A DNA stretch of 64,000 bases, taken from assembly GCA_964016885.1 (NCBI GenBank), contig OZ024740.1, positions 160,952,001-161,016,000 on the forward strand, written 5' to 3'. The DNA is from Eledone cirrhosa. Taxonomy: Eukaryota. Shown here piece by piece: positions 3,171 through 34,370 of this stretch. Made by a program: the position numbers and the translations under genes. The notes under the pieces are model-generated. The model was not told the origin of the DNA and made no database searches. It saw only the letters and a list, made by a program, of their open reading frames with translations. Positions within the stretch are counted from its first letter, which is position 1, and each line of letters opens with the position of its first letter.

Positions 3171-3301
3171 TGCAAAAGTTTTATTTAAAATTGTTGGGTT
3201 ACAACGAGTAAATATTTTATAACTGATATAAAAGCACTCAACAAGTTTTGGAGTATTTTACGATATTAAACAAATGGAAACTACATTTATAAAACCATAT
3301 T

Positions 3302-3367
3302 TATTTCATTATATATATTTCAGGGATATCATATTAAAAATATGGTATGCCCTCTTCAGACAAAATA
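3302..3367 (-). ncRNA. Type I hammerhead ribozyme motif (PLE type)
   Basis: The minus strand reads TATTTTGT-CTGAAGA-GGGCATACCATATTTTTAATATGATATCCCT-GAAA-TATATA-TA/ATGAAATA. This gives an 8-bp stem I (2 G.U), a canonical core, a long stem II, a palindromic stem III and an AUA cleavage triplet. Confidence 0.8.
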
Positions 3368-3669
3368 CAATATATAAACAGTTTTATAAATAAATTTGAC
3401 ATACCTTAAAACTTTACAACTTCCATTTAAAAAGTTGTTTTGGTAGTGAAAATGTTAAGGACAGTTAGAAAGAAAGACGAAGAGAAAAAAGAAAGAAAGT
3501 GTATAGTGCTAAGGACAGTTAGAGAGGAAGGCGAAGAAAATGAAGAAATGTATGTAAAGAAAAAAACAACAGAGCGAGATGGAGAGAGAGATATGGGATA
3601 GAGAAATATTGAGGAGGTGAAAAATGAATAACGTACAAATGAGAGATTTAGGAGGGAAGGGGGTACTGT

Positions 3670-3714
<45 letters not shown>

Positions 3715-4368
3715 GTTATAGTGTTAAGGATACGGAGAGAAATAAAAATAAAAATAAAAATAAATAAAGAGAGGTAGAAAGAGATATAGGTGGTGGGAGA
3801 AAAGAGGTAGATCGAGTAATAACTATTATACGAGGTGGGAGAGATAGGGGAGGGGTGAGATAAAGGAGGTAGAGTTAAATCAGCCGATACATAAGTCCCG
3901 TCAAGTGTAGAGGGAGGAGGAGAAGAGATATATTCAGAAATAAAGATGATAGTTTTAAAATATTATGTTTCATCAGTCTATCAATTCTTATGAATTAGGT
4001 ATTATAATGTAAATATCAATATTCATGAATGAGACACATATCAATAATGTGTGAAAAAATAATGACTATATGTTTAGTTTAAAAATTCTTAGGTTTATAA
4101 TCAAAATCTGAGATAAAACTTCAAAAAAATACTGAAATACATAAGTATATATGTATTTTCATGAAAAAAGAAAAAGAAAAAAGAGAAAGAAAAAGAGAAG
4201 GTTATCTCAAATTCAAGTTGACATTATAGACACACATGTGAGTTTACGTGATCAGCTCTGTAAATTTTTATTTCACATGAAAATCTTCATTGCGTTACAA
4301 AAGATTCTACCATACATATATGTACATACAGGTATGTCAAATTTATTTATAAAACTGTTTATATATTG

Positions 4369-4435
4369 TATTTTGTCTGAAGAGGGCATACCATATTTTT
4401 AATATGATATCCCTGAAAATATATATAATGAAATA
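4369..4435 (+). ncRNA. Type I hammerhead ribozyme motif, mirror copy of 3302-3367
   Basis: TATTTTGT-CTGAAGA-stem II-GAAA-ATATATA-TA/ATGAAATA, with one extra A in stem III. Confidence 0.75.
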
Positions 4436-4589
4436 AATATGGTTTTATAAATGTAGTTTCCATTTGTTTAATATCGTATATATTTATATATATATATATA
4501 TATCAGGAACAATCGACATTCGTCAAATCGGACCGAGGAAACAATGTTTCCATTGGTCTTTCCAATTGCTAATACTATCTATCGGTCGC

Positions 4590-4724
4590 AACTCCAGGTA
4601 GAAATATCAACGTGAAATAAAGTGTCTTGCTCAAGGACATAACGCATCGCCCGGTCCGGGAATCGAACTCACAACCTCACGATTGCGAATCTAATTCTCT
4701 AACCACTCAGCCACACGCCTTCAC
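4590..4724 (-). mobile_element. tRNA-derived SINE head (family A)
   Basis: The minus strand has an A box TGGCTGAGTGG and a B box GTTCGATTCC, then TGTCCTTGAGCAAGACACTTTATTTC shared with 17949 and 23682. Confidence 0.85.
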
Positions 4725-4839
4725 ATATTTATATATACATAATATATATATGTTGAAAATAGAAAAAGTCATAGGAGTGAAGAGTGCTCTATGTATGTAC
4801 CAGAGCAAAATTTAATGTATAAAAACAATACAATATAAT

Positions 4840-4913
4840 TACCTCATTACCAGAGGTTTCCCGAATAAGACGAATACGAAAGAAACGTCTTCATTCGTTC
4901 GTCGGACGAGGCA
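4840..4913 (-). ncRNA. Type I hammerhead ribozyme motif, left-arm copy
   Basis: Reverse complement of 9031-9104, with one C>T giving a G.U pair in stem I. Confidence 0.8.
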
Positions 4914-6187
4914 ATATAAAACATAGAGAAATATTTGGAATGTCTCTTCAAGAAATGCAAAAAAAAAAAATTTATATATAGATAGATAAAGGTAATACAA
5001 TAGAAATATAAAATATATTAAAAAAATGTTTAAAGAAATTTAGTTAGGTGTGTGTATATGTATGTATATACACTCACAGATATACATATGTATGTATGTA
5101 CAAATGTGTGTGTATAGTGAAAATGTGTGCGTAAATATATGTATGAGGGCAAGTATATCTGTGTATATGTAACCATAGACACAGACATCATATGAGTGTC
5201 TGGTTGACAGGTATACAGAAAAACAGGGTATTAGATACATTATAAAAATATGAAGGCACGCGTATAAACACACACACACGCGCGTACACTTATATGCGGA
5301 AGAAAAAGACGTAAGGGAGTGTAATAGTAAAAAGAAAGTATCATTCTCGATATATTTATAAAAATGGAACAATAATTTAGAAAGAAAAAAATTGCAAAGT
5401 AAAGAAAAGTAAACAAACAAGGTACACGCGTACATACACATATATCTATAAGAAACATATATCTATAAAAAATATATATATACACGCAATACGTGCAGAC
5501 AAAAGCTTATGCAAGCGTACATACACACACAGGATGCACATATATATATACATACACATCGCCCCATGTATATCTAATCACGCGTACGTACGCGACTGTA
5601 TACACACACACACATACACACACATAAGTATATATATATATACATACGCACACATACACATCCATACATGCAGTACGTACACACACACGCACACATACAT
5701 ACACTCACGCACGTTGACCCGGTAACATGCACACACATAAAAATAAGAATGTAAAAAAAGAACATAGATGTAAAAACACAGATATAAAAACACACATACA
5801 TACACATATATATATACACGCACGCGCGCGCACATACGGAGGCATTCGTGTACATATACAGAAAGTATACACACATAAAGACGCTCAGACACATAGATAC
5901 AGGGTGTAAAAACAGCTTTGTGAATAAGTGAGTACAAATATAAAAATGTAAAATTGGCTGCGAAATAACAGACAATATCTGGATGGAAAACGCAAGTGAC
6001 TTGTATAATCAAGTAGTGAAGAAAATAGGGAAGTAAAAGGTGGAAAGTGGAGATATTAGGTAAGTGAATCGGAGAATAAAGGGGGAGGGGGGTTTAGTGG
6101 TGGATGTGAAGTAAAAATAAAAATAAAAATAAAAATAAAAATAAAAATAAAAATAAAAATAAAAATAAAATTAAAATTAATAATAAG

Positions 6188-7698
6188 ACTGATATTGGTC
6201 TTGCCAGCAAACAAATTTTAAATAATATAAATACACACATTAGAAGTAAGTCTAAATTACTCCAATGGATAAATAGCTCTTCCGTAGTACATTGGTTTAA
6301 TAAAATTAAAAACAAAAATAGTTCTAGATTCACCCAATTTGACATTGTAGATTTCTACCCATCTATCACTAAGACTCTTTTAGCGAAAGCTTTAAATTTC
6401 GCTAGAAAGTTTACCAATATCTCTGATATTGAAGAGAATGTCGTCTTGCACACTAGAAACACTCTACTCTTTACTGATAATGACACTTGGGTAAAAATAT
6501 CTAACCCAGAGAGCCCATTCGATGTCTCAATGGGCTCTTATGACAGTGCTGATGTTTGTGATTTAGTCGGCCTATTCCTCCTACACACACTTAAAGAAAA
6601 GTTCCCTAACCATATTTTTGGGCTTTATCGCGACGATGGTCTAATACTTTCCCATACCACCATAGGCCATAACTTAGATATATTAAGGAAAGACTTAATA
6701 AAAACCTTTGCTAGTTTTAATCTTAAAATTACTATTGACACTAACCTTTCCAATGTAAATTTCCTAGATATAAACTTAGATTTGCCTACTGCTTCTTATA
6801 AACCATACCATAAACCTAATGAAAATTTAAATATATAAATAAAGGCTCTTGCCATCCTCCTATAGTTTTTAAAAACCTTATCCCTAATATTAGCCATAGG
6901 ATCTCCACCCTCTCTTCCTCAGAAGCTATTTTCAATAAGGCATCCCCCTACTATAATAAAGCCCTCCAAAATAGCGGTTTTAGCGAACCGATTAAATACA
7001 TACCCAACTATACTAACTCTATTAAACATAAAAATAGGAAAAGAAAAATAATCTGGTTCACACCCCCCTACTAATGTAGGCAAAAAATTCCTAAAGCTCT
7101 TAGATAAATATTTCCCTAGAACACATAGATACTATAAGATCTTTAATAGAAACTGTGTCAAAATTAGCTACTCCTGCGATCCCCCTATTAAATCTTATAT
7201 AATCAACAAAAAATTACCTAGAGAACATCAAAATTGCTCCTGTAGAATCAAAAGTGAATGCCCATTACAAGGTAAATGCAACACCAAAGCCATTGTATAT
7301 GCGGCTAAAGTGACAACCATCAGCAACAACCTACCAGCCACCAGTGAACGATATGTGGGTATGACGCAAGACAAATTCAAAACGCGTTATTACTCACATG
7401 TCGCATCCTTTCGACATCCAGAAAAAAGATTTACAACAGCTCTGGCTAACAGAATATGGGATTTGAAAGATATAAATTGGATTGGTCAATTTTGAACCAA
7501 TCTAAAGAATATACAAGAGGAACAAGAAAATGCACGCTCTGCATAAATGAAAAATATTGGATTTTGCAAAACATTAAATCACCAAAGACCTGCCTAAACA
7601 CAAAGACAGAAATTTTCACCAGTTGCCCACACATGAAATCACACCTGCTTTCCAGCTCATATAAACTTAACACACTTTCAGATACTTATCCTCCATAA
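6188..7698 (+). pseudogene. PLE reverse transcriptase plus GIY-YIG endonuclease, frameshifted and 5'-truncated
   Basis: RT motifs: FTQFDIVDFYPSI, FDVSMGSYDSADVCDLVGLFLL, GLYRDDGL, VNFLDINLDL. Endonuclease: CPLQGKC...IVY...YVGMTQDKFKTRYYSH...CTLCINEK...LNTKTE. Confidence 0.92.
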
Positions 7699-8293
7699 GC
7701 TCTTATTTTTCACTTAAATTATTCTCTTTAAGACTACCTTTTCTGATTTACTTTCATTTTTAACCTTATTATTAATTTTATTTTTATTTTTATTTTTATT
7801 TTTATTTTTATTTTTATTTTTATTTTTATTTTTATTTTTATTTTTATTTTTACTTCACATCCACCACTACCCCCCCCCCTTTATTCTCCGATTCACTTAC
7901 CTAATATCTCCACTTTCCACCTTTTACTTCCCTATTTTCTTCACTACTTGATTATACAAGTCACTTGCGTTTTCCATCCAGATATTGTCTGTTATTTCGC
8001 AGCCAATTTTACATTTTTATATTTGTACTCACTTATTCACAAAGCTGTTTTTACACCCTGTATCTATGTGTCTGAGCGTCTTTATGTGTGTATACTTTCT
8101 GTATATGTACACGAACGCCTCCGTATGTGCGCGCGCGTGCGTGTATATATATATGTGTATGTATGTGTGTTTTTATATCTGTGTTTTTACATCTATGTTC
8201 TTTTTTTACATTCTTATTTTTATGTGTGTGCATGTTAGCGGGTCAACGTGCGTGAGTGTGTACGTACTGCATGTATGGATGTGTATGTGTGCG

Positions 8294-8325
<32 letters not shown>

Positions 8326-9030
8326 CTTATGTGTGTGTATGTGTGTGTGTGTATACAGTCGCGTACGTACGCGTGATTAGATATACATGGGGCGATGTGT
8401 ATGTATATATATATGTGCATCCTGTGTGTGTATGTACGCTTGCATATGCTTTTGTTTGTACGTATTGCGTGTATATATATATTTTTTATAGATATATGTT
8501 ACTTATAGATATATGTGTGTATGTACGCGTGTACCTTGTTTGTTTACTTTTCTTTACTTTGCAATTTTTTCTTTCTAAATTATTGTTCCATTTTTATAAA
8601 TATATCGAGAATGATACTTTCTTTTTACTATTACACTCCCTTACCTCTTTTTCTTCCGCATATAAGTGTACGCGCGTGTGTGTGTGTTTATACGCGTGCC
8701 TTCATATTCTTATAATGTATCTAATACCCTGTTTTTCTGTATACCTGTCAACCAGACACTCATATCATGTCTATGGTTACATATACACAGATATACTTGC
8801 CCTCATACATATATTTACGCACACATTTTCACTATACACACACATTTGTACATACATACATATGTATATCTGTGAGTGTATATACATACATATACACACA
8901 CCTAACTAGATTTCTTTAAAAAAATTTTTTATATATTTTATATGTCTATTGTATTACCTTTATCTATATATATCTAATTTTTTTTGCATTTCTTGAAGAG
9001 TCTTTCCAAATATTTCTCTATGTTTTATAT

Positions 9031-9104
9031 TGCCTCGTCCGACGAACGAATGAAGACGTTTCTTTCGTATTCGTCTTATTCGGGAAACCTCTGGTAACGA
9101 GGTA
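9031..9104 (+). ncRNA. Type I hammerhead ribozyme motif with variant core CCGACGA
   Basis: TGCCTCGT-CCGACGA-ACGAATGAAGACG..CGTCTTATTCGG-GAAA-CCTCTGG-TA/ACGAGGTA. Stem I is 8-10 bp, stem II ~11 bp, stem III CC/GG, triplet GUA. Predicted cleavage is after 9096. Confidence 0.82.
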
Positions 9105-9128
9105 ATTATATTGTATTGTTTTTTATAC

Positions 9129-9170
<42 letters not shown>

Positions 9171-9174
9171 TATA

Positions 9175-9600
9175 TCATCATTATCTTCACCGTTTTACCG
9201 TTTTACGTCCGTTCTTCCATGCTAGCATGGGTTAGACGGGTTGTCCTGTTGTGGGCAGTAGCCGGTCGGCTGACCATGCCTTGCTCATACGGGAACTGAT
9301 TCTGGCTTGATTTCTACAGCTGGATGCACTTCCTAACACTAACCTCATTTACAGTGGTTGCTGGGTGCTTTTATTCCATGGCGCCTACACGTCCACTTTA
9401 CAGTGTGGGCTGGGTGCTTTTTTGCCGTCGCGCCTCCACGACCATTTTGCAGTGTGAGGGTGTGGAGGCATATTGTCTATGTGCTTCAGCTTCAGCTTAT
9501 ACCCGTGTGGGGTCGGGTCTTCTGTATTACTGCGTGACGCCAGAGGTCACGGTCGTGTGTCATCACCTCTGAGAGGTGGAATTCGGTAAGGTCGGCTTTC
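9175..9600 (-). mobile_element. RTE-clade LINE 3' end: last RT codons, long 3' UTR and (GAT)n-type tail
   Basis: The minus strand reads MTHDRDLWRHAVIQKTRP, then a UTR containing GTTAGGAAGTGCATCCAGCTGTAGAAATC shared with SINE family A. Confidence 0.75.
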
Positions 9601-9624: not shown

Positions 9625-10555
9625 TTCGTTTCTGAATTTGGTTAACAAGATTCTTAATCTGAAAACGTGTGTTGAAACCGATATTGTTATACTTTGGGAG
9701 GGTCATGTTGCCAATAAGAAACACACCCTCCAGTAGCTTTCACATCAATTTATTATAAATTAAAATTATAAATTTAGGAATTTATAAATTTCCGGTTGGT
9801 TGGTTGGTTCCACAACCAGACGATTTTTCATATATTGTCAAAGTTCTTTCGTCACACATTCTGTGACCTCTTCAGTGACTGGGAATTCTTTTCTTTGTTT
9901 TTGTGCCTCTCATTTGTTCTGTCCTACGCCATCTTGTTTGTGTGTGTGTTGTGTGCTTAGTTTGCGCATGTGTTATATCCGGGTGTCTGTGTGTGTTTAT
10001 ATTTGTTTATTTATTTGTTTATTTACATGTTACTGGTTGGTTGTTTATTCTATGTATGTGTGTGTTTTCATTTTGTCCTTAATTGTAAGTTGTGATGTTG
10101 CTATTCCATTCATGCTTTCTATTTAATTTTGGTTGGAGTTCATTTATGTTTATTGCCTCTGTAATTTGTCTAAACATTGCGTCTTTTCTGTGTGTAGATT
10201 CTATTTTTATTTCTATGTTCTTTAATTTACCCTTATGTTCTATTTTAGCATGTTGGTAGAGTACAGATGATTCTTTAATATCTTGAAGCTCTCGCCAGTG
10301 TTCATTTATCCGTTCTCCTATACTACGAGCTGTCTCACCTATATACACTATATTCTTATCTCTACAGTGTCCTTCAGTATATCTTATGCTATATACTACA
10401 TTTCTAGTTTTACAGTTAATATGGGGGCTTAGTTTACAGATTATACATTTCTTATCTATACAGGGAGGTCTTTGAAAAGGGTATGTATTGCTAATAAGTG
10501 TTTTTATGGAGGTACCTGGTCTTTCTACTATCTTAATATTGAGTTTATGTTTATC
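9625..10555 (-). mobile_element. PLE 3' fragment: GIY-YIG endonuclease and 3' UTR with a hammerhead
   Basis: ORF 10079..10570: C-x4-C-x2-C...CKTRNVVYSI...YIGETARSIGERINEH...FRQITEA...LNRKHEW. Homologous to 20846..21406. Confidence 0.9.
9837..9879 (-). ncRNA. Minimal type I hammerhead ribozyme motif
   Basis: GTCA-CTGAAGA-GGTCACAGAATGTGTGAC-GAAA-GAAC-TT/TGAC. Confidence 0.75.
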
Positions 10556-10571
10556 TATATATATATACATA

Positions 10572-11030
10572 TGTAGCGACGTGGTTAGTCAGTCTGGTCA
10601 CTACTTCTGATCAGATCCGAGAATAGCCCTTAGAAGGACTGTTATCGAATTCCGTCTGATCAGAGGACTGTTGTCGCATATAGCCCTTAAAAGAACTGTT
10701 GAGGATGGACAGACGAAAGCACAAGTTGAAAGGACGAATCAAGGTGAGATGTAAATTCGATCAGCTATTTATTTTCACATGATGCGACGATACGAGGTAT
10801 AAGGCGTGTGTGAGTGACAAAGCGTGGCAGAGTAAGGGAACAACGATACGCTAGCTGACTCTGCCAAAAGTCGACTGCTGAAGTGTTTGGAACCACTCTA
10901 TTTATACAGAAATAATCGTTTGATGTTTGGCCGCTGTGTAGGCGTTTATTCTGGTAGGTTTTATGAGTTAGCGGGCTAACAGGTAGATGGCGCTGTATAT
11001 TTCACAGATGTTATTTCCGGTGGCTGTACA
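10572..11030 (-). repeat. 3' LTR (459 bp, TGTA...TACA), preceded by a purine-rich PPT-like tract GGCAGGGTGGTAA (11031-11043)
   Basis: Terminal TG...CA inverted ends; shares ~130-150 bp with 15376-15525. Confidence 0.8.
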
Positions 11031-11953: not shown

Positions 11954-12900
11954 TCACATATTGTGCCAACTTGGCGGGCCAATGGACGCGTCGTCCACTT
12001 CTCGTGACTGGAGATGAAACAGGTGGCTCGCTGGGACAGCAATCTGTTGGAGTTTCTGATGTAGAGACTGTAACAGTATCCATGATGGCTTTTTTAATCT
12101 GTCCACGCTGACAGAATTCTGTTTACCATCTAGATCAAGAATAAAATATTTCGGATATTTTTTTAGAACACGATAAGGGCCAGAATATGGAGGTCGAAGA
12201 TGAGCTGAGATGGTGTCGTTTCGAACGAAAACGTGTGTCCAATCTTTAATGTCTGAAGGTAGGTGTGTGGCCGTGTTCTGTTGACGGGTGCTTGCAGGAG
12301 CAAGGTGAGACATATATTGTCGAAGACGGTGTACGTATGATCCTGGGTCTGGAACATCCTGAGGAGAGATGGGAGCAACCATCTGACCGGGTAGAACCAG
12401 GGTGGTGCCGTACACTAATTCTGCAGGTGTGTGTCCGAATTCCTCCTTAACGGTGGATCGAATGCCCAGAAGGATGAGTGGTAGGTATTCAAACCAATGG
12501 GTCTTGTCTGGGTATGCTTTTATTGCAGCTTTCAATTGGCAATGGAATCTTTCCACGAGACCATTAGCTTGCGGGTGATAAGCTGTCGTGCGGATGTGTT
12601 TACATACTAAGAGGCGAGTCAGTTCCCTGAAGAGGTGGGAGTCAAATTGGCATCCTCTGTCCGTTGTTATCTTCGCTGGGGTGCCATAACGTGATACCAA
12701 GTGTAAAACCAAAGTTTTAGCAACTGTTTCCGCTGAGGTATCATTTATGGCAAAAGCCTCAGGCCAACGAGAAAATCGATCTATGCAGGTGAGCAAGTGT
12801 GTGTAGTTCTGTGATGGTGGTAGAAGTCCGACGATGTCGATATGCACATGATGAAAACGTGCATCAGGTTGCGCGAATGTGCCGAGTGGAGTTTTGATGT
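11954..12900 (-). pseudogene. Gypsy integrase core (rve), frameshifted relative to RH
   Basis: [46 protein letters not shown], and a GPY/F motif PYSGPYRV. Confidence 0.93.
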
Positions 12901-14435
12901 GTCTGTGGGTGGACTTTGGCTTTCTGGCAGGCAATGCAGCTCCTGGACAAGTCGCGCACGTCCTTGTTAATGTTAGTCCACACAAAACGAGCAGAGATGG
13001 GTTTCTGTGTAGCCCGGATTCCTGGGTGAGACAAGCAGTGTAAAGCAGAAAAAACTTGTCGACGATGCATCTGTGGTACGTACGGTCGTTCATGACCGGT
13101 AGAAAAGTCGCACCAAATGGGAACTTGCTGAAACTTGAGGGATGGCGAATCTCGGATCTTGATAAACTCTTCGTCAGTCTCTTGGTCAGCTGCGATCTGT
13201 TGAAGGTCGATGCCTGAATGCACATGTATTGCGTTCAGCTGGATTCGGGACAGGGCGTCGGCTGCTACGTTGTCTGATCCATTGATATGCCGAATATCAG
13301 TTGAATATTGGGAGACAAAATCGAGGTGTCGGAGTTCTCTCTGTGAATGTCGATCAGGTTTGGTACGGAACGCATAAACTAATGGTTTATGGTCCGTGTA
13401 GATCATGAAATCTGATCTTTCGAGCATGTGCCGAAAATGCTTAACCGAAAGATAGGTTGCCAAGAGTTCGCGGCCAAAGGTACTGTGTTTCGTTTCTGCC
13501 GGTTGCAACCGCTTAGAAAAGAAGGATAAGGGTTGCCACACGCCGTCGACATGTTGTTGTAGAACGCTTCCAACTCCCGTGTCTGATGTGTCCACTAGCA
13601 GCGAAAGAGGAGCGCCAGACCTGGGGAAAACGAGCATGGAAGCGTTTGCAAACATTTCCTTCAGGCGGTTAAAAGATGTTAATTCTTCCTCGTTTAGAGT
13701 AATCTCTTCGTTTTTGCGAGTCCGGTTACGAAGAAACTCCGTGAGGAGTCTGGCTGCGTCGGAACAATGAGGGATGAACCGCCTATAAAAATTCACCAGA
13801 CCGAGGAATTCATGCAGTTTCCGAAGTGATGTAGGTGCGGGAAAACTGCGGATAGCTTCTACTTTCTCGGGAAGTGGACGAATGCCATCTTTATCGATGG
13901 TGTGCCCGAAGAAGGACAGTGAAGGAACGCTGAGAAGGCATTTGCTGGGGTTGATTATGATACAGTACTCAGCCAAACGTTGGAAAAGGAGATCTAAGTG
14001 CTTCTTGTGCTCTTGCTCGGAAGTACTTGCTACCAGCACGTCGTCAATATACGCGTATACGAAGGGTAGATCGCGTAACACGGTGTCAATAAACCGCTGA
14101 AAGGTTTGTGCAGCGTTGCGCAGACCGAACGGCATTCGCAGGAATTAGAATAAACCGAACGGTGTTGTGATTGCGGTCTTCGGAATGTCTGCAGGCTCCA
14201 TAGGTATCTGGTTATATGCACGCACCAAATCTACATTGGAAAAGAAGCGTGCGCCTTGCAGAGAGGCAAAAAAATCGTGCAGGTGAGGTACAGGGTAATT
14301 ATCGGGTACTGTAGAATTGTTAAGTGCACGATAATCCACACATGGTCGCCAATCATTCTCGTTTTTTTTAGGAACAAGGTGTAGGGGTGCAGACCAGTTG
14401 CTGGAGGAAGGGCGAATGATTCCGAGGTCCAGCAT
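12864..14435 (-). pseudogene. Gypsy RT-RNase H-integrase zinc finger, interrupted by a stop at 14145-14147
   Basis: [61 protein letters not shown]-x3-HPG...CIACQ. Confidence 0.94.
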
Positions 14436-14439
14436 GTGT

Positions 14440-15316
14440 TGGAACTCCTGCTTGGCGTTCTCAATCGGTCTTGAGGCAGTCTCTTTGGTCGGGAAGCTGT
14501 GGGTGGTCCTCTTGTCTCGATGTGGTGCGTGACACTGTGCTTAATAGGACCATCCTTAAATACCGGGCGAGTGATGTCTGGGTATTTCTGGAGAATGCCG
14601 TTGTACCGCGAAGGCTCTGACTGGCAAATTACAGGGCTCACTGTGGATTGCGTGGTAAATATACCTCTCACAGTGAGGTTTGTGGTGGTGGCAATAAGCC
14701 TCCGGTTCTTCATATCCACCAGAAGGTTGAAGTGGTGGAGGAAATCGGCTCCTAGGGTAGGGGTCGGCAGGTCTGCCACGACGAACACCCATTGAAAACG
14801 CCGCCTCAGGCCTAAATTGAGGGTCAGGGATTTTTCCCCGAAAGTCAGAATTGACGATCGGTTCACTGCCTGCAGAAAGGACGGTGTTGGGTGTCTTTTG
14901 CCCGAGATTAGTGAAACAGGAATAACACTAACCTGGGCTCCTGTATTCATGAGGTAACGGATGCCTGTCGCCTGGCCGTTAATAAAATATAGACGACTTT
15001 TCTTTTCAGTACCAGGGGTGAACGTCGTCGCTAGGCCCTGGGTGGCATTCCGGAAAGAGCAAGGGGCTTTGCACTTAGATGTCTGTGCGCCGAAATTTGT
15101 GTGATACCAGCAGAGGTTGCCAGGCACACGATTTTGACTGGGACTACTGGATCTTTGAATGTGAAAAGGCCTGGATCGACTGTTGCTGCGTCGCCGGTGT
15201 ATTTGAAAGGTCAAGTTCTCTACTTGATTCGAGAGGGCTTTAATCTGACCAGCCCGCTCACTGATCATAGCCCGCAGCTCTGAAATCTCGGCCTCTGTCG
15301 TTGGTGACATGTCCAT
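14440..15316 (-). pseudogene. Gag C-terminus (CHCC knuckle) and aspartic protease with D>N in the catalytic motif
   Basis: LCWYHTNFGAQTSKCKAPC, YLMNTGAQVSVIP (DTG>NTG), PTLGADFL. Confidence 0.88.
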
Positions 15317-15356
15317 GTTGATATTTTCTTAGGTGCTGTCTGGTTGCGCGTTCGAC

Positions 15357-18351: not shown

Positions 18352-18721
18352 TAGAAAAAAGTATGACCCCGATGGCAGAGCTCAAGCCGTTTCGACGACT
18401 ATTTCTGGACTAAATTAGAAATTTTAGCCTGGTGAATAAATAGCCGAACTTTTCAAGGGGGTACTTCTTTATACGGGAAGATTGTAGTTGTCAAGAGGAT
18501 TGGTTAAAATTTGTTGTAAACACAAATAAGTCTATCATGGCATTTGGTGAGAAGTAGGGGTGGCTGAAATTGCCTGTAGAACAATAGGGGAATGAGTGGA
18601 GCGGTCAAGCGTTGAAAGTGATATGTATACATCAGATTCTAAGGATAGTGTATGAAGTGGGGGAGGGAGGTTATAGAATAGGTAAATCGAAAGAGAGTAG
18701 GAGACAATAAAAGATACTAGA

Positions 18722-18761
<40 letters not shown>

Positions 18762-20288
18762 GATAGTGAGAAATGAATAAAGAAATCACAATGCTATCTT
18801 ACATTTACAGGTTAATAAGTTGAGAATAGAAAAAACTTATAGAAATTACAAAACAGATACAAACTTAAAGGGTTTTTTTACACATCTGCTATAAATAGTT
18901 AGTAAAACGTATTCGGCTAATTCTATCTTAAAATAACAGGGGTGGGGGAACTGATGCTACAAGGCCCGATGGGCTGCATCGGGGTAGGCGAAAGGGGAAA
19001 GCAGACGAGGAAGAAAATAGAGGGTCGAAGGAAGTGATAGGATGAGACAGAGGGAAGGAGACCAAGGGGAAAAGAAAAGATACATTTACCTATGTAAGCT
19101 GGGGTTTCCCCTAGCTTATTCGGCAAGTATGTGTGGGGGTGGGTATCAGCCTTTGTCTACCCACCGGGGTCGTTATAGGGTTTGAAGGCGAGGTAAGTCC
19201 TACGCAATCTGTGTTTGCATGCGGTTACCAGTTCATCTTTCTTGTTTAGGAGTTGGTCCTTCGGAAACAGCATTTGTAATGTTTCCTCCGAGCATAAGTT
19301 ACACGGACAGCGTCCTCCCGTGTAAGAGTTAGCTCTGGACAGTAAGCTCCAAGTGAGATTGTAGGTTATATTGTTATCTTGGAGGTCCCAGATGTGGCCC
19401 GAAAGTGTAGTGGCATGTCGCCGAACCGGGTTTCGGAAAGTGTGTCGGTGTTGGTAGAGCCGAGTCTTGAAGTCACACGCAGTTAATCCTATATAAGCTT
19501 TGTTGGAGGTGTCCGTCCTCACGTTGCACTGGTAGATCACATTACATTCTCGGCATTTGTTGTTGAGGGGGCACGTGGATCTATCAGGGTAGTTACACAC
19601 TTTCGGGCCCATCGGGCCTTGTAGCATCAGTTCCCCCGCCCCTGTTATTTTAAGATAGAATTGGCCGAATACGTTTTACTAACTACTTATAGCAGATGTG
19701 TAAAAAAAACCTTTAAGTTTGTATCTGTTTTGTAATTTCTATAAGTTTTTTTCTATTCTCAACTTATTAACCTGTAATTGTAAGATAGCGTTGTGATTTC
19801 TTTATTCATTTCTCACTATCTAATTTTATATATATATATATTTATTTATTTCTAGTATCTTTTATTGTCTCCTACTCTCTTTCGATTTACCTATTCTATA
19901 ACCTTCCTCCCCCACTTCATACACTATCCTTATAATCTGATGTATACATATCACTTTCAACGCTTGACCGCTCCACTCACGCCCCTATTGTTCTACAGGC
20001 AATTTCAGCCACCCCTACTTCCCACCAAATGCCATGAAAGACTTAGTTGTGTTTACAACAAATTTTAACCAATCCTCTTGACAACTACAATCTTACCATA
20101 TAAAGAAGTACTCCCTTGAAAAGTTCGGCTATTTATTGACCAGACTAAAAATTCTAATTTAGTCCAGAAATAGCCGTCGAAACGGCTTGAGCTCTGCCAT
20201 CGGGGTCATACTTATTCCTATTTCCCACTCTACTACTCTAAGTTTGAGTACTCTGGTGTGTTATGGTCCATTTGGTTCCTTACCACAA
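18352..20288 (-). mobile_element. Palindromic PLE: ~620-bp inverted arms (18352-18974 / 19607-20220) around a GIY-YIG fragment
   Basis: The arms are reverse complements. The right arm extends ~70 bp further. (TA)n flanks both sides. Each arm has a degenerate hammerhead-like motif TTGAAAA-long stem II-GAAAC (18378-18452 on -, 20110-20192 on +). Confidence 0.9.
19157..19606 (-). pseudogene. PLE GIY-YIG endonuclease domain (C-terminal fragment)
   Basis: CPLNNKC...NVIYQC...YIGLTACDFKTRLYQH...CNLCSEE...LLNKKDE. Same subtype as 7250-7698. Confidence 0.92.
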
Positions 20289-20310
20289 TCCCTTTGTTAT
20301 ATATATATAT

Positions 20311-21365
20311 ATATTGTTATACTTGGGGAGGGTCATATTTTTGTAATATTGCCAGAATTAATAACAGAACACAATCACTGTTTGGTTGGTTTTCGCTTTT
20401 CGCTTCTGTGTCTTCTATATCGGTAATCAAATTTATTCGGTCCTCAATGTTGCCATTCACTGACCAACGGTCAAAAATAATACAGATACAATATAGACAC
20501 AAACACTTATATATAGTTTATCATAAATCTTTCGTTGCACATCTGCAACATCGTCAGTGGTGCTATAGATTCCTCCCGTTGCATTGTATTTCTACGCCAT
20601 CTTTATTTAGTCTGATTATATATTTATTTATTTGTTTGTTTGTTTATTTTATTTTGTCTTCTTTGCGCATTCGTTTGCGTGTGTGTATAGTGTTTTGTTT
20701 GATGTGTGTTCGTGATTGGGTGACTGTGTATTGGTTAATGTGTTCTATGTTTACTAGTGTGTGTTTATATGTGTTTGTTGTTATTGTGCTTGTGTATGTA
20801 TTTATTTATTTATTTATTTATCTATTTATTTATTTATTTATTTATTTATACTTCTCTTAGGTCAGTGTTGTTTGTTTGGGTGTTGTTGTTATTCCATTCA
20901 TTCTTTCTGTTTAGTCTTGTCCTTCTAAGTTCTATTTCACTGGCCTCTCTGATTTGCCTATCTGCTGGGTCATTTCTATGTTTAGATATTATTCTAATTT
21001 CTATGTTGTCTATGTTACCGTCGTGTTGTTGTCTGGCATGTTCGTATAGTACTGACCCGTTTTTTCGTCCTTTTAGTTCCCCCCAGTGTTGGTCTATCCT
21101 TTCACCTATGCTACGAGCTGTTTCGCCTATGTATGTTGTTGTCATGTTTCTGCAAGTGCCCTCTGTACATCTTATGCTATAGACTACGTTTCTAGTTTTA
21201 CAGTTTATCCGGGAGTTTACCTTACATATGATACATTTCCTATTAGTACAGTGGGTTTTCTTAAAAGTGTAGGTTTTGCTAATCAGGGATTTTATGGTGG
21301 TTCCTGGCTTTTTTACCACCTTAATCTTTAAGTGGGTCTTTCTCAGGGCCTTTCTACACTGGTTA
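20311..21365 (-). mobile_element. PLE 3' fragment: GIY-YIG and 3' UTR with a hammerhead; same family as 9625-10555
   Basis: ORF 20846..21406: CKTRNVVYSIRC...YIGETARSIGERIDQH...LNRKNEW. It shares the terminal motif ATATTGTTATACTT(T/G)GGGAGGGTCAT with 9681-9706. Confidence 0.9.
20520..20561 (-). ncRNA. Minimal type I hammerhead motif
   Basis: ACCA-CTGACGA-TGTTGCAGATGTGCAAC-GAAA-GATT-TA/TGAT. Confidence 0.7.
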
Positions 21366-21647
21366 GCTAATTTACCCTCCAGGGGTAGCATCCACAAACA
21401 TGACACTCTGGTATCTCTGGTTGTCGTACCATGAGGTGGCTTTCCCTATCTTATGTCTAGCCCTATCTAAGCTATTCCAGGATTTGCTCCGTCAGCTAGA
21501 TCCGAACTAAGCCACCAGCTGACAAAATGGGCGGAGCTCAGCCATCAGGGTCATAACTCTTTTCCTATTACCTACATATGTATACAAACATACATACATA
21601 TAAGAAGTGTAAGTCAACAGGGTAAAATTAGCTTTGTTTATTCATAT

Positions 21648-24101: not shown

Positions 24102-27100
24102 TAAATGGCGACAATCGGACGTGTGTAATTACGGCTTACATAAAGGCAACATACCATATACTGGAAAAAGTTGAGCTACATTACGCGGTAAGATTACATA
24201 CAATAATTCTACATAAGTGTTTGAACTGTAAGTGTGTTGTAAAACACCTATTTATATGAACGATACATACACTTTAACATATAAATGCAACGTTGTTATA
24301 TTACATTTATAAAGAAATATAAAAGTAACGTTTTCGATTCAGAAACAAAAACATGTGTTTGAACTGTGAATAAGTTGTAGAACACCTATTTATATGAATG
24401 ATACATAAACTTTAACATATAAATACAGCGTTGTTATATTATGTTACATTCATAAAGAAATATACTAAGTAACGGTTCTTTTTGTTCTCGATTCAAACGA
24501 TTCAAGAACAACGTTTAAAACACAGTTGTAGAATTAAAAACTAACTGAAAAGAAATATTACCCAAGCTGTGAATAACTTTAAATTTGATTCTGACAGAAA
24601 TTTGTCGAAACTTTTAAAGAAGATCATCGACTATTTTTAAAAATAAATACGAAATATTAGTGAATAGATGAACTCATCATGGCAAAAAGTACAAGCCTCC
24701 TTCGACCAAATCGCAACTACAACCGTTGTATACAGTGGAGCTACGAGCTTAACAAAGTATTATATGAAGCATACAAACAATCTGAACCCCAAAAGTTCGG
24801 TTTTATGCAAAGGCTAAAAACTTTATGGAACTCCAAACACCCAGAATTAGACTTTTCTCCAAAGCATTTAAATGAACAGGCAAAACGTATCATTAGATGT
24901 AAATTGATACATCTAACGGAATTGAGTGATACTACAAATACAGCCCTTGTATACAACCACCCCACCTCCACTGACAGACAAAGAGAATGGCCAGCTAAAT
25001 CTAACAGTGAACAGCTCACCAACAATTTTGCTGAAATCCATCCCACTTCCACTGAAGAACAGCGAGAAAGGTCAGCTAACTCTAGTAGTAATTGTCACCA
25101 CATCAACAACGAGGTTGAAATTCATGACTCTACTGAGCAAACAGAGCACCAAAAGCTTGTGGACACCCTACAAGTGACATGGAACGATATGTTTCAAGAG
25201 ATACACAGCCTTAATGTGAGTGACAGACCATACAACACCAGAATCAGTAAAGAACCCACTAAATTGGAATTGGAAGCGGTGAACGAAATAGCTGGCAATT
25301 ATCTGAAGGCTATACGATCTAAAGGTGTAGAAACGACATTTGAAACGCTTAATGTTTTGTTATATGTTTCAGCTGTCACATTGCTATCATATAACACACA
25401 TCTAAAACCACCTAAACAAGATACAAACAGAAAGCCTGAACCAGCGTGGATGCGAAATTTAAAAACCAAAATTTTGTCCCTGAGACGAAGTATCTCACAC
25501 ATCGCAGTCGTTATGAAATGCAACATAGAGAGCAACTTCACACGACACCAGGAAGACCTAAAGAAAAAGTTAGAGAGACGATTTGGAGATACAAAATTTA
25601 AAACTTTAAAATCCAAATTACACCAGTTGAAACAACAACTCACAGCTACAGCAGAAAGACTAAAATATAAGTCAACAGCACATAAACGACAAGTGCTAAA
25701 TAGATTGTTTGCCAGAGATCCTAAATCAGTTTATCGCAGCTTCGGTGGCAAAAGCTCAATCCCTGTAAACGACACCCCTTCAAAAGAACAGGTTGAGAGC
25801 TACTGGAGATCTGTATGGGAAACGGATGACGGATTCAACAGACAAGCTAATTGGCTAAAAGAACTGGAATAGGACTACTGCCAACATGTCCAGATAAAAC
25901 AATATGACATAGATAGGTCAATACTGGAAACAGCACTACAGAAAATGTCGAATAGGAAATCGCCAGGCCCAGACCTCATTACAGGATAATGGTTGAATAA
26001 TTTCACTTTCTATCGGCAAGATCTCATACGGCTGTTTACAGAAACCATTAAAGGCACACAAGAACTGCCCAGATGGTTATCAACTGCCACTACTCTCTTC
26101 ATTCCCCAAAATAGCCAAACCACCCTTGCTAAAAATTACCGCCCAATAGCCTGCCAAATCATCATGTATAAATTATATACTGGGTGCCTTAACCTGTTCT
26201 TACAGGATCACTGTGCTACCAACAACATCATAACACCTGAGCAAGCTGGTGGAAAGAGGGAGGTGTGGGGTTGCATAGATCACCTACTAACTAACAAAAT
26301 GATTCAGGAAAAAACAACAAAGAATCGCAGAAATATGACTGTGGTGTGGCTGGACTATCAAAAAGCATTTGATAGTGTACCTCATGGGTGGATTATTAAG
26401 GCTTTACAGTTAGCTAACGTCCCACAACCATTGGTAGCTGCTGTTGAACGCCTGACCAAGAACTGGTACACCAATTTGATCCTTAGAGGTGAGAAGGAGA
26501 AAGTTAAGACTGATAAGATACATTTCCAGAAGGGCATCTTTCAGGGTGATAGCTTGTCAGTGCTACTCTTCGTTCTCTCACTGAATCCACTATCTTACCT
26601 ACTCAGGAAACAGGGTGGACAAAGAAGTGGGCCCAGAAGTATCTCCCATCTTTTCTTTGTTGATGACCTGAAGTTGTATGGGCCAAATATCAATGACATC
26701 AAGAAACAATTGGACCTCATTACACAATTTTCAACCGACATCAAAATGAAATTTGGTGAGTCCAAGTGTGCATATTTGGCAATAAAACGTGGAAGAGCTG
26801 TGCCCTCCTCTAGAAATATAGAGAGGAACGGCCTGACAATACAACTTCTGCAGTCATGTGACAACTACAGATATCTTGGACAGGATGAGAATGTCAGATA
26901 TGATGGACCCATAAATAAGGAGAGAACCAGAACTGAATACCTCAGAAGAGTAAAGAAAATATGGTCATCAGAACTGTCAGCATACAACAAATACATTGCC
27001 CACAATACTTATGCTTTGCCAATTCTAACGCCAACATTTGGCCTGCTGAACTGGTCATTGCAAGAACTAAGTGAGATGGATGTTAGACCTCGAAAACTTC

Positions 27101-28262
27101 TCAGTGTTACTGGGAACTTTAACATCAATGGTGATGTGGATAGGCTATACTTCTCACGCAAGGAAGGTGGCCGGGGTCTAAAATCAATATTAACAACATA
27201 TGAGACCCGGATAGTAACACTGGAGCAACACCTTCAACAGAGGAAAAAGGTTGGCAACCATCTTGCCCAGGTTTATGAGCATGAAAAAAAAATATCATTA
27301 GAATAGCGACTGATCTGGAGGAGAGATGTGGAACAAAGCCTGATATAAATCTCTCACCCAGAGAAATCGGAAGATCCTATTCAATGTTCAAACAAGATTA
27401 AAAAATTGACCAATTTACAGAAAAAGTTGTTCATGGATACTTGAGACGTAAAACACAGACCATAGAGGGGATAAACCACTCAAAAAGCCTGGCATGAAGT
27501 TCCGACAAGTCTATGACATCACACCTTGAGGGATATCTCTATGCAATACAGGAACAAGAAATCCCTACCAAATATCGGCTGCACAAAATAGGAAGGCCAG
27601 CAGCTGACAATAAATGTAGGCTATGTAAAACAAAGATCGAGGATGTAAGCCACATTGTTGCCAGCTGCGAGTGAATGTCATCTCGCTACTACCTCCCCAT
27701 GAGACACGATGGGATAGCTAGAACCATCTGGAACGCACTTCGGAAAACAAAATTAACAACAAACGAGGAAGAATATATTGAGACAGATGGCACTAAGGAA
27801 TACTGGTGGAACCTGAAAATAAAAACTGCCACCAAATTAAAGCACAACCAGCCTGATATTGTTGTTTGGGACCACACATTGAAAACGTGTTCTGTTGTGG
27901 AGATCAGCTGCCCACTTGATGTAAACGTTGTCAGAAAAATACAGGAGAAGGAGGACATCTACGGACCATTGATGAGGAGTTTACAAATCCAGTATCCAAG
28001 ATACACCTTTAGCTTCATACCCATCATTATTGGAGCTACGGGTTATATACCAACCCGCTTGGACCAAAGTATGACTGAACTTGGATTTGCGGACAAAAAG
28101 CGCAGCTCCCTAATTCATAGTCTACAAATGGCTGCGATAGCTGGCACCTTCAAAATTTGCAAAACATTCTTGCGATTCAAGGGATGACAATTTCTTTTCT
28201 TTTACAACCTTGCCACCAGGAAGGTGGCCGGTCAAAAAAATATACTCGAAATTAAGAGAAAG
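24102..28262 (+). mobile_element. Near full-length RLE-type non-LTR retrotransposon (R4/Dong clade), disrupted
   Basis: A single long ORF region with RT, a CCHC knuckle and a restriction-like endonuclease. Flanked by (CATA)n-rich repeats. Confidence 0.9.
24679..28187 (+). pseudogene. RT-CCHC-RLE polyprotein with in-frame stops (25870, 25988) and a frameshift (~27290)
   Basis: KSPGPD, NYRPIAC, WLDYQKAFDSVPH, GIFQGDSLS, HLFFVDDLKLY, YRYLG, RLYFSRKEGGRGL, CRLCKTKIEDVSHIVASC, RHDGIA, KHNQPDIV, VEISCP, KEDIY. Confidence 0.93.
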
Positions 28263-28318
28263 AGATATACATACATACATACATACATACATACATACAT
28301 ACAACATACATACATACA

Positions 28319-28927
28319 TGGTGGCTGCCGACTCGTTTTCGAGTACGGCCACTACTTTATATCCATGTAGGAGAACCCCTACCGATGCGTTGAACAAGTG
28401 TGACTTTTCAGTCCAGCCAGCGACTTGAAGACTCTAGTACAAACACTACATTTGTGACAATTACTGACACATAGTGCTGGGCCCATGGTACCATGTGATT
28501 ACAAGTGCAGAGAGATTTCCATATATAAAGCAATGCTTGTGTCGTGAAGTTTTTATAGTGAGCAAAGGCACTGCACAAAGCCAGTCCCACTCTCTTAACC
28601 AAGATGATATTTATCAAAAAGAAGAACAAGTCAACATCATTGGATACCATCAGGGTTGCAGGTGTTATATCAGAGTTTTCCTTCTCCTAGAATTCTGCCT
28701 TGACAAAGGCTAAGGGGTCATCTCTCCCGGTGATTTTGAATGGCCATTGACTCTTAAGAGCTCCTTTGCCCTTTGACAGGTTTTGTTTTTAGTCCTGCAG
28801 GATATCCAAAGTCACCCTCCTCACCAAGAAACCTTGGTGGGGTTGCCAGTTTAGTCGCCAACGACCCGACCATGAGCCAGGTTGTACTGGGATACATGTT
28901 ACCAGTAGCACCAACTGGTGACCTGAC
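28319..28927 (-). mobile_element. ~610-bp non-coding RTE-derived non-autonomous retroelement, copy A
   Basis: Contains the RTE 5' UTR-type motif TCTAGGAGAAGGAAAACTCTGAT (recalled family motif) and a (TATG)n tail. Highly similar to copy B. Confidence 0.75.
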
Positions 28928-28944
28928 ATACATACATACATACA

Positions 28945-29556
28945 TGGTGGTGGCTGCCAACTTGTTTTCGAGTACGGCCACTACTTTATATCCATGTAGG
29001 AGAACCCCTACCGAAGCGCTGAACGAGTGTGACTTTTTAGTCCAGCCAGCGACTTGAAAACTCTGGTACAAACACTACACTTGTGACAATTATTGACACA
29101 TAGTGCTGGGCCCATGGTACCATGTGACGACAAGTGCAGAGAGATCTCCAGATATAAAGCAATGCCTGTGCCGTGAAGCTTTTATAGTGAGCAAAGGCAC
29201 TGCACAAAGCCAGTCCCACTCTCTTAACCAAGATGATATTTACCAAAAAGAAGAACAAGTCAACATCATTGGATACCATCAGGGTTGCAGGTGTTATATC
29301 AGAGTTTTCCTTCTCCTAGAATTCTGCCTTGACAAAGGCTAAGGGGTCATCTCTCCCGGTGATTTTGGATGGCCATTGACTCTTAAGAGCTCCTTTGCCT
29401 TTTGACAGGTTTTGTTTTTAGTCCTGCAGGATGTCCAAAGTCACCCTCCTCACCAAGATACCTTGGTGGGGTTGCCAGTTTAGTCGCCAACGACCCGACC
29501 ATGAGACAGGTTGTACTGGGATACATGTTACCAGTAGCACCAACTGGTGACCTGAC
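28945..29556 (-). mobile_element. ~610-bp non-coding RTE-derived non-autonomous retroelement, copy B (tandem)
   Basis: Direct repeat of 28319-28927, separated by (CATA)n. Confidence 0.75.
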
Positions 29557-30069
29557 ATACATACATACATACATACATACATACATACATACATACATAC
29601 ATACATACATACATACATACATACATACATACATGTGTGTGTGTGTGTGTAAGTGTATAGTATATGTATATAAAATAAAATGTTGTAGTTTGCTTGAAGC
29701 ATTGTTTATAATATATAACGTTGAAAGATATAGAAGACTAAACAATGCAAAATGGACTGTAAGATGAGGTAACGAAAATTGAGTTACCTGGTAATCTTTT
29801 TGTTATTTTGTTGTTGTTTTTCTTTCATCTGTCCATAATTTCAGGGCCTTCAGGGTTTAAGGTAGTTTAAGGTACTTTAAGGTACTTTCAGTGGATAATG
29901 TTCCAATTTCCTCTCTTTGGAATAAAATTTTGATCTTGATTTTTTTTTATGGTTATTTCGTTTTCCTCGTGAATGACATCTATTGCCAATATAGTATTTC
30001 GCGAAATCAATTTCCTTTTTTGTATGAGATGATTAGTTTGTGTGCCTCTGGATGTGTCTTTTAATGTCA

Positions 30070-32061: not shown

Positions 32062-34370
32062 CATCATCATCATCATTTTACGCCCGCTTTTCCCTACTTG
32101 CAAGGGTGGGACAGATCCTATTCAGCACAGCATCTCGCCACTTGTCATGGTCCTTTGTCATCTCCACCATGAGCTTCAGTGATCTGAGGTCCACTCTCAC
32201 CACTTCCGCCCATGTTTTTCGTGGTCTTCCTCTTCTATGTCTTCCTTTAACTGGCATTTCTTGGCACTTCTTCCCCCATCGGTCATCCTCCATGTGCATC
32301 ACATGTCCATACCATCGCAGTCTCCTCTCCCGTACACTACTATTTATCCCTCTCAGACACAGTTTCTCTCTCAACACATCCATGATCGGCCATTCACGCA
32401 CATTGTCATTGCACATCCAACGGAGCATGCTTGCCTCATTTCTCTCCAGCCATCGCATATCCTCTGCAGTTGCTGCCCATGTCTCACTGCCATGCAGCAT
32501 CGCGCACCTCACACAGTCATCATATAACCGGCCTTTTGTACGCAGGGAGAAACCCTTCAGCAGAGGAAGCAGCTCCCTAAACTTCTTCTAATCCATCCTT
32601 ATTCTAGATACTATGGCCTTGGAACACCCCCTCCCATGCTAATCTGATCACCTAGGTACCGGAAGCTATCAACCATTTCTATAGCACCCACCTGCATTTA
32701 AAAAATGTGTCTATCAATGCGACTTCTACTGTCAAATTCCCCTGTACATCTACTGCATACATATTTCTCCCTACCTGTTAGCTTGCCTGCTATCCCACTA
32801 CATCTCTTGTGTACCCAAGATCTGCATTGTGTACATTTTATAGAATTTATGCCAGCTCCTTTTCTGCATATCGAAAATGGCCATTTCCCTGATGGAATCA
32901 GAGTTTTGTCCTCTTTTCTACTCATCAACACTTTTGTCTTAGTTAGGTTCACTCTCAGTTCTCTTGATTCCAGCTGCTGTTTCCATAGCTAGAATTTATT
33001 CTCTAGCTCCTCTACTGATTCTGCTATAAGAACCAGATTGTCAGCATAGAGAAGTTCCCATGGACAGCCAATCTTAAACTCCTCTGTAATGGCTTGGAGG
33101 ACTATAATGAACAAGAGCAGGCTGAGAACCGAACCCTGATGTACTCCTACTTGTATCTTGAATTCCTTACAAAACTCCATTCCTACCCTGACTTTACTAA
33201 CAGCACCTCTGTACAAAGTTTCCACTGTCCTCACAAACCATTCCTCAACACCTAGCTTCCTTAGGGATCACCAAATGACAGATCGGGGTACCCTATCAAA
33301 GGCCTTCTCTTGGTCAACAAAGGCTAAGTATAGTGGCTTATTCTTCTCTAAGAACCTCTCTTGTAATTGTCTCACTAAGAAAAGGGCATCTGTTGTACTT
33401 TTCCCAGGCACAAAACCAAACTGCATCTCATTTAGTTTGACCCTTTCTCTAATTAGTTGTGCTAATATCCTCTCTGCTACTTTGTATAACCTGATCTATC
33501 AGTTTTATGCCCCTATAATTGCTCCTCTCCAGAGCATCCCCTTTAACTTTGTAGCAATTTATGAGAATACTGGTGCACCAGTCTTTGGGTATCACACCGC
33601 CATATATATTTCTTTAATCACCTCTTGGACACTTTATTCATCATTCTCAATAACTGGTCCCTCTGTCGGATCTACTGTAGGTAATTTCTCTCTCTCCCAT
33701 TCGTTCTCCACATTCATCAGTCTCTCATAATGACATTTCCAGGCCTCCTTTTTCTGATCATTCGTAACACTAAGTACACCGGCATTATTCTGCACACATT
33801 TATCTCTAACAACATCCTGTCTTGCAATGCGGAACACCGCATGTCTGTGATCTTCTCGTCGCAGAACATTGGCAATCCTCCTACTCTCAGCATCTCTGAG
33901 TGCTAAGTACACCTGACGTCTAGCTTCTCTCTTAGCAGCTGTGTAACCTTCTCTACCCCCAACATTTTCCCAAGCTTTCCATGCTAGTCTTTTGTCTCTA
34001 ATGGCCCTATCTACCGTGCTGTTCCACCACCAGGTCACCCTCTGCTCCAGCCACATGTTCCTTCCGTAGCCTGCAGTAAGTTCTCACGTAAAAAATTCCA
34101 GTTATCATCTATGTCATACGACTCTAAATTGTCTTCTTTTTCGTCATACACATCTTGAAGGGCTTTACTAAATTTGTATTTTAGTGAAAGGTCTTTTAAC
34201 TTCCAGACCTTTCTTCTCCACACCTTCCTGTATGTCTCATTCCGTCTCTTGCTTACTGAGATATCACTAACGACTAGCCTATGCTGTGGGGTACATTCTT
34301 CCCCGCAGTATGCCTTGGTATTTGACACTCTGTCCTGCTGCCTAACTAGCAAGAAGTCAATCTGGCTTAT
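32062..34370 (-). mobile_element. RTE-clade LINE, 5'-truncated and disrupted: APE C-terminus, RT with internal PHD-like Cys cluster, (GAT)n tail
   Basis: QHRLVVSD, TWWWNSTV, GVHQGSVLS, ELLYADNL, NLTKTKVL, CTQCRSWVHKRCSG, MLHGSETW, RLRWYGHV, GRPRKTW. Confidence 0.92.

Follow-up and report, generated by a model that had tools for sequence, protein, structure and literature searches.

A palindromic Penelope-like insertion in Eledone cirrhosa, and the pairing of one short with one long 3' end in head-to-head copies

We study here an insertion of a Penelope-like element (PLE) in the genome of Eledone cirrhosa. It lies in a stretch of 64,000 nucleotides (contig OZ024740.1, positions 160,952,001 to 161,016,000, forward strand) that we call the window, and all coordinates are counted from the first letter of this stretch. 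A preliminary description, made from the sequence alone, had reported a PLE palindrome of about 4.4 kb at 4751..9132, with inverted arms of about 1.37 kb. The palindrome is real: base-level alignment puts the ends of the insertion at 4752-9131 (4380 bp), within 1 bp of those proposed, with TA-rich or (TA)n tracts on both sides. The length of the arms is confirmed by two computations, since self-BLAST of the window yields one 1.4-kb inverted match, 4810-6194 versus 9135-7770, at 94.2% identity with gaps, and base-level alignment places the arm pair at 4814-6187 and 7765-9131. The features of the locus, including the remnant of an open reading frame (ORF) for a reverse transcriptase (RT) and the 3' untranslated region (UTR), are the following:

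4725..4751, no strand: left TA-rich target tract, from the sequence.
4752..4813, minus strand: tail ('long' end), 62 of the ~80 nt that extend the 3' end in the family, on the left arm only; matches the same stretch in many loci at 93-98%.
4814..6187, minus strand: left arm, an inverted 3' UTR copy, partner of 7765-9131, from self-BLAST, arm alignment and the reading of the junction.
4841..4912, minus strand: hammerhead-like motif, left-arm copy, the mirror of 9032-9103 by arm alignment.
6184..6187, no strand: TAAG microhomology (4 bp), common to the arm end and the RT sequence, by sibling comparison.
6184..7698, plus strand: 5'-truncated remnant of an RT and GIY-YIG-type endonuclease ORF, from translations and sibling comparison.
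7699..9131, plus strand: low-complexity 3' UTR with a (TTTATT)n run at 7747-7852, ending at the family's 'short' end, from sibling copies, end mapping and Tandem Repeats Finder.
7765..9131, plus strand: right arm, by alignment with the left arm.
9032..9103, plus strand: type I hammerhead-like motif, predicted cut after 9096, from core conservation.
9132..9175, no strand: right (TA)n target tract, inside which a target-site duplication is unreadable, from the sequence and Tandem Repeats Finder.

Nearly the whole 3' UTR is copied in inverted orientation, as had been claimed: the stop codon of the ORF is at 7696-7698, thus the UTR has 1433 nt, and the arm covers 1367 of them (95%). The two arms differ at 19 of 1196 well-aligned sites, and by indels that lie mostly within repeats. 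Two parts of the initial picture need adjustment. The arms were called microsatellite-like, and the UTR is indeed of low complexity, but the arrays called by Tandem Repeats Finder in the right arm add up to only about 225 nt out of 1367, roughly one sixth. A plain two-arm structure was also assumed: both arms exist, but nothing in the right arm pairs with 4752-4813, which is a tail derived from the element.

The ORF remnant was searched against the genome's own assembly (G000, 3.0 Gb). The family has 2547 candidate places, and 40 of them, the window aside, were scored at 89-95% identity. The long-copy set used below consists of 40 loci with 10 kb around each (39 from this search, 1 from a further search), picked by ORF similarity and not by flank. 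The 3' UTR, arm included, is present in these copies at ~72-94% identity. The TG/TA-rich arm is thus element sequence, which bears out the idea that some microsatellite-looking DNA is PLE 3' UTR: here a stretch of 1.4 kb that annotation could mask as simple repeat belongs to a retroelement.

The central part of the insertion translates to RT motifs, a CxCx5C linker (~7237-7263) and a GIY-YIG-type endonuclease, up to the stop codon. Measured on siblings that have a direct pseudo-long terminal repeat (pLTR), the copy starts ~197 codons into the ORF. It has deletions of 1 nt (~6829), 17 nt (~7070) and 13 nt (~7470), each with respect to all three siblings compared; with three frame-disrupting deletions, the copy is dead. 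Sibling L069 has one open frame of 680 amino acids, with the RT motifs FDIVDFYP, MGSYDS and YRDDGL, then IVY...YVG; this frame is broken in the window copy. The RT and endonuclease are identified by such motifs, as Pfam gave no RT or GIY-YIG match for the window fragments and three sibling ORFs. Direct pLTRs arise from partial tandems in siblings such as L088, L082, L070 and L093, while the window copy lacks one; exact patterns of internal tandem junctions match 61 times genome-wide.

The diagnostics of the Hydra clade are RWK without GxKF/Y, DKT, a CxCX5C linker, no CCHH, C-terminal CxxC and CxH, and (TA)n targets (PMC8557442). The window family presents the same combination, together with a hammerhead-like motif near the 3' end. 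RWK (RMRWKA) and the change of DKG to DKT (SDKTK) are found in siblings, in the part that is truncated away in the window copy; the linker is CSCRIKSEC; there are zero cysteines between IVY and YVG, hence no CCHH; CTLC (CxxC) and CPH (CxH) occur near the C-terminus; and (TA)n flanks the window copy and almost all terminal ends of the long-copy set. Hydra families are 'generally <3 kb', a tendency and not a diagnostic (PMC8557442), which a unit of ~3.76 kb, from short end to short end in L088, does not follow. Judged by its motifs, the window element is a 5'-truncated, frameshifted PLE of the Hydra clade, and its initial assignment to the PLEs is supported. The closest family listed in the accessible part of PMC8557442 is Hydra-1_Obim, whose protein fragment has, by eye, long motif blocks in common with the sibling ORFs. 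It is given there as 2507 bp long, against ~3.76 kb with a ~1.4-kb low-complexity 3' UTR here; the tail has ~80 nt here, against 30-40 nt, and the direct pLTRs of the siblings are a further difference. With published proteins compared by eye only, the window family is distinct from Hydra-1_Obim.

All ends mapped in the long-copy set fall into two precise classes, short and long, the latter ~80 nt further, nearly always followed by (TA)n. Exact patterns of these ends match 471 times (short) and 1804 times (long) genome-wide, and 0 times for reversed controls; as exact matches these counts are lower bounds, and the patterns catch different subfamilies, so their ratio means little. In the window insertion the right end is short and the left end is long. 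Its tail, whose terminal portion is at 4752-4770, stops at offset +62, against +81 in most long ends and +77 to +81 over the family, the last ~16-19 nt being missing; this could be a small deletion beside a repeated 5-mer, or the use of a minor start site.

The combination of one short and one long end is a rule. The 5' junction carries an inverted piece in 18 of the 40 long-copy loci. Both terminal ends are legible in 13, and all 13 pair short with long, the tail being on the inverted arm in 8 and on the main arm in 5. Five loci are left out of this count: the main end lies beyond view in L084 and is damaged in L096; L089 has a tail that breaks off after 26 nt, with a short partner; and in L082 and L085 the inverted piece has no terminal end. 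A second, unselected sample was formed by the first 30 matches of each end pattern on C1; the view upstream extends over ~7 kb at 40 anchors and over 1.5 kb at the other 20. Setting aside the window and one insertion matched twice gives 58 insertions, with two ambiguous partial matches uncounted. An inverted terminal end is found in 29 of the 58: the partner is long for 16/16 short anchors, and short for 13/13 long anchors (Fisher p=1.5e-8). Over the two samples, the 42 head-to-head insertions with two legible ends, the window aside, are all of the type short plus long. Coordinates only, over the first 187 Mb of C1, give the same result for 9/9 head-to-head pairs within 8 kb, a set that overlaps the unselected one.

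The rule also holds in a second PLE family, with 11/11 head-to-head terminal pairs among 30 tail-selected loci; two seeming long-plus-long cases run into shared non-TA sequence and appear to be internal tandem junctions. This family (2520 candidate places) has a copy in the window at about 18355-20296. Its inverted arms are 625 bp long (94%), only one of them carries a tail, of ~83 nt, (TA)n flanks the insertion left and right, and a Hydra-like endonuclease remnant lies at 19157-19675 on the minus strand. Back in the first family, of the 24 unselected insertions that are asymmetric, 14 have the tail on the shorter arm, as do 8 of the 13 long-copy insertions. Five insertions (L137, L144, L148, L156 and L167) are near-perfect hairpins of 166-296 bp, with inner breakpoints 1-13 bp apart, each with one short and one long end.

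If the two arms of the window were independent insertions, their divergence should be no lower than between unlinked copies, a test put forward in the preliminary description. They are in fact closer: the arms are 1.9-2.0% apart, the nearest of 44 other ends is at 4.2-4.3%, the median is 10.4%, and the arms rank first among 45. Ranking was possible for 29 of the 42 pairs (overlap of at least 150 bp, at least 10 comparators, short-span pairs running through the junction excluded): the own arm ranks first in 18 of them, and in the top three in 25. The divergence per arm, ~0.8%, is that of private substitutions in the unduplicated ORF, 14/1530 (0.92%), which indicates that the arms were probably identical at birth and then decayed independently. 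Gene conversion between the arms was considered and is unsupported, given this match of rates and the fact that both arms have a base that no other copy has at only 2 of 1196 sites. The comparison thus supports a single event as the origin of both arms, which were probably identical at insertion and not homogenised afterwards. Over 25 pairs there are 511 arm differences, of which 405 are private, 96 are alleles common elsewhere, and 10 are not scorable. Locus L084, which has an inverted arm, a full tandem unit and a truncated second unit, shows 21 arm-difference sites with both alleles common elsewhere, and is a candidate for two templates.

The left arm joins the truncated RT directly at about 6187, as first described, and the junction reads AATAATAAG followed by ACTGAT. 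Comparison with family copies confirms the suspected microhomology and sets it at 4 bp: TAAG belongs to both sides, since siblings continue with element sequence upstream of 6184, and the right arm continues differently beyond 7765. At this point, 35 of the 40 other loci read TAAG and then ACT, preceded by element sequence. The arm end does run into the RT frame as N-K-T-D, but this frame is incidental, since the N comes from the arm and siblings read A-K-T-D. The in-frame KNKNK run could suggest a fusion protein, but this idea is rejected: there is no upstream start codon in frame, and a frameshift follows at ~6829. The junction joins points that are 1.58 kb apart on the element, with no local hairpin apex and no short palindrome. 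Reading 17 further inversion junctions by eye shows a clean overlap of 1-4 nt at 8; the remaining 9 are blunt or ambiguous, or have 2-7 extra nt.

The general layout is known. An inverted 5'-truncated copy with a tail at one end is typical of endonuclease-bearing (EN+) PLEs, according to the text and the legend of Fig. 2 of PMC8557442, the parts of that source available; the accessible parts of PMC3846280 and PMC2377424 show it for A. vaga Pen2a and D. virilis Penelope. These share with the window a head-to-head inverted 3' end at the 5' side, a one-sided tail, and microhomology-type joins. The window copy differs in lacking a direct pLTR, a readable target-site duplication and a short palindrome at the junction, and in its arm, whose 1.37 kb reflect the length of the UTR. 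The window insertion is real but ordinary in its architecture: the layout is already published, it is that of half (29/58) of the unselected insertions, and similar insertions number roughly a thousand or more. How PLEs build tandem and inverted insertions is named as unresolved in the accessible part of PMC8557442, and the pairing rule provides a pointer to the mechanism of integration.

We propose, with a probability of roughly 60%, that the palindrome was made by dual priming: both nicked target strands would prime at one short and one long start site of reverse transcription, and the cDNA ends would then anneal. In this proposal, each nicked strand of the (TA)n target primes reverse transcription, one at the short site, the other ~80 nt further 3' at the long site. 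The cDNA from the short site would extend over 2.95 kb, to 6184, and the cDNA from the long site over 1.43 kb, to 7765. The 3' ends of the two cDNAs, TAAG in the top strand and CTTA in the bottom one, would then anneal, each priming second-strand fill-in on the other. The absence of same-type end pairs suggests a coupling of the two primings. It would probably be brought about by a protein dimer on a single RNA, with strand displacement or with a tandem transcript as template. The palindrome itself is probably a by-product of integration, without function.

A slightly bolder claim, which we hold at a little better than even odds, is that the pairing of one short with one long end is the footprint of normal PLE integration, by a dimer on one RNA with two fixed start sites, one per nicked strand. 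If so, the side of the tail is random and its number fixed at one per insertion; a two-site, two-strand result obtained in vitro is tied to the long-unexplained inverted layout; and PLEs with long UTRs are routine makers of kilobase near-perfect inverted repeats, thousands of them in this genome.

The in vitro result concerns the Poseidon element PAc, which cuts and extends both target strands, is predicted to act as a dimer, and starts reverse transcription at two sites of the RNA, the tail being the stretch between them (PMC11167929). The system resembles the window family in its two start sites bracketing the tail, its cutting and extension of both strands, and its AT-rich targets. However, PAc belongs to a different clade, and the main text of PMC11167929 neither links these properties to the inverted layout nor reports one-of-each pairing. 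A literature search found no paper stating a dual-priming model for PLE inversions; it did not cover most subscription papers, and is not proof of absence.

The proposed route also has a likeness to twin priming in LINE-1, where each target strand acts as a primer and a microhomology links the ends of the two cDNAs. In LINE-1 the second primer lands internally, and the outcome is an inversion without duplication; in the window family, primings at fixed 3'-end sites would instead yield an inverted duplication with one tail.

Another route, which we consider unlikely, would also give insertions with a single tail and with arms that start out identical. The cDNA started at the long site could fold back at a microhomology and copy itself, and the endonuclease could then cut one end of this hairpin at the short site, leaving the tail on either arm. 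ATT is the preferred site of PAc, which is able to nick its own pLTR (PMC11167929), and the short end lies at ...CATT; the tail is assigned to endonuclease-mediated resolution in the accessible part of PMC8557442; and near-symmetric short hairpins do exist, 5 among 29. However, this route requires an unprimed or self-primed cDNA, and an integration step not known from PLEs. Insertions without an inverted arm in the stretch viewed can have short ends too, and in vitro the tail maps to two start sites of reverse transcription and not to a trimmed DNA end (PMC11167929).

Rather less probable is the simple snap-back, or template switch, of one target-primed cDNA onto itself, which was the reading offered at first; the related self-priming on an antisense template is proposed for inverted PLE copies in the accessible part of PMC3846280. 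The microhomology invoked by that reading is present, at 4 bp, the arms are nearest relatives, and palindromic junctions are reported from A. vaga (PMC3846280, accessible part). The snap-back itself is contradicted: a cDNA can copy only what it holds, and here the short arm has the 62-nt tail, while the long arm is tail-less and has 1.58 kb extra, so that neither strand templates the other in full. The same polarity is found in the 14/24 and 8/13 insertions counted above, and the junction, with its points 1.58 kb apart, has no local hairpin apex. Simple snap-back survives for the window only if the right tail was lost later, and a short end at the same base in 471 places argues against chance loss. 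Strict pairing of tailed and tail-less ends in two families rules out simple snap-back in about one half of the cases.

An origin from two separate insertions, or from copies that recombined or were converted at a later time, is very improbable. The family is abundant (2547 candidate places) and (TA)n tracts draw repeated insertions, but the arms are 2.0% apart with the nearest other copy at 4.2%, the parts meet directly at a microhomology with no (TA)n between them, short and long ends pair strictly, and only 2/1196 sites have an arm-shared base absent from other copies; this explanation is largely refuted. An artefact of assembly or of fold-back reads is hardly credible, even if no spanning read or bridging contig is shown for the locus, for the arms are separated by 19 substitutions and several indels, with private changes in each, the tail is one-sided, and the same anatomy is found at 42 other loci. 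Logan contigs from four runs, over 4200-5040, are collapsed repeat pieces; none of those listed bridges the junction of flank and tail, and they are uninformative either way.

Several points weigh against dual priming. Every step of the mechanism is read back from end products, and the in vitro work that resembles it concerns another clade and reports no difference in start site between the two strands (PMC11167929). A clean overlap of 1-4 nt is seen at only 8 of the 17 other junctions. The 11 of 29 pairs that do not rank first, together with the 96 of 511 differences that involve common alleles, allow for two template RNAs as well as one. No inverted partner is found in 29 of the 58 unselected insertions, at a detection length of 26 bp and with 1.5 or 7 kb viewed, which implies that insertion can do without a second priming, or that this priming often extends very little. 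Finally, 5 of the 29 unselected pairs, all short, have inner breakpoints within 13 bp, and fold-back fits them equally well. The pairing rule does yield a direct prediction for the existing in vitro system.

Both arms contain a candidate type I hammerhead, in that stems I-III can be drawn: the motif at 9032-9103, mirrored in the left arm, has the core C(C)GACGA, a long stem II, GAAA, a 3-bp stem III, and GUA. Among 77 distinct copies, 72-77 keep each core position, apart from position 4, which is U in 60 and C in 17, the window copy included; the C is apparently a subfamily trait. The right arm of the window has a private change that turns a G-U pair of stem I into G-C. Rfam gave no hammerhead match, its 22 matches being microRNA models on TA/TG repeats, all far below gathering score; the predicted minimum-energy fold of the region is a different hairpin, and the motif shows no covariation in so young a family. 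PLE hammerheads are reported as weak, requiring dimers or protein (PMC11167929, and the accessible part of PMC4209133).

A hypothetical read-through transcript would pair over 1.37 kb, and the preliminary description suggested it as a possible substrate for ADAR or Dicer; the window copy lacks its own 5' region. Small interfering RNAs from inverted Penelope copies are reported in transgenic Drosophila, in the accessible part of PMC3681739.

The window holds other repeats. Related GIY-YIG endonuclease remnants at 10079-10588 and 20846-21445, with 72% DNA identity and a weak Pfam GIY-YIG match for the first (E=0.0047), probably belong to PLEs of a different clade. RT remnants of PLE type lie at 1250-2282, next to a segment, 2323-2706, that is matched in inverted orientation by the units of a 645-bp direct tandem (96%) at 28304-29574, within 28265-29574. 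Just left of the insertion, 3259-3406 and 4330-4478 form a 149-bp inverted repeat pair at 99% identity, whose right member is high-copy in public contigs. The segment 10572-15525 contains broken ORFs resembling protease, RT, RNase H and integrase (11954-15328, minus strand), a long terminal repeat retrotransposon by eye from the translations, flanked by similar repeats at 10572 and 15376. Several ORF remnants of non-LTR retrotransposons, also by eye from the translations, lie at 24664-28187, 32078-34403 and 48772-52060.

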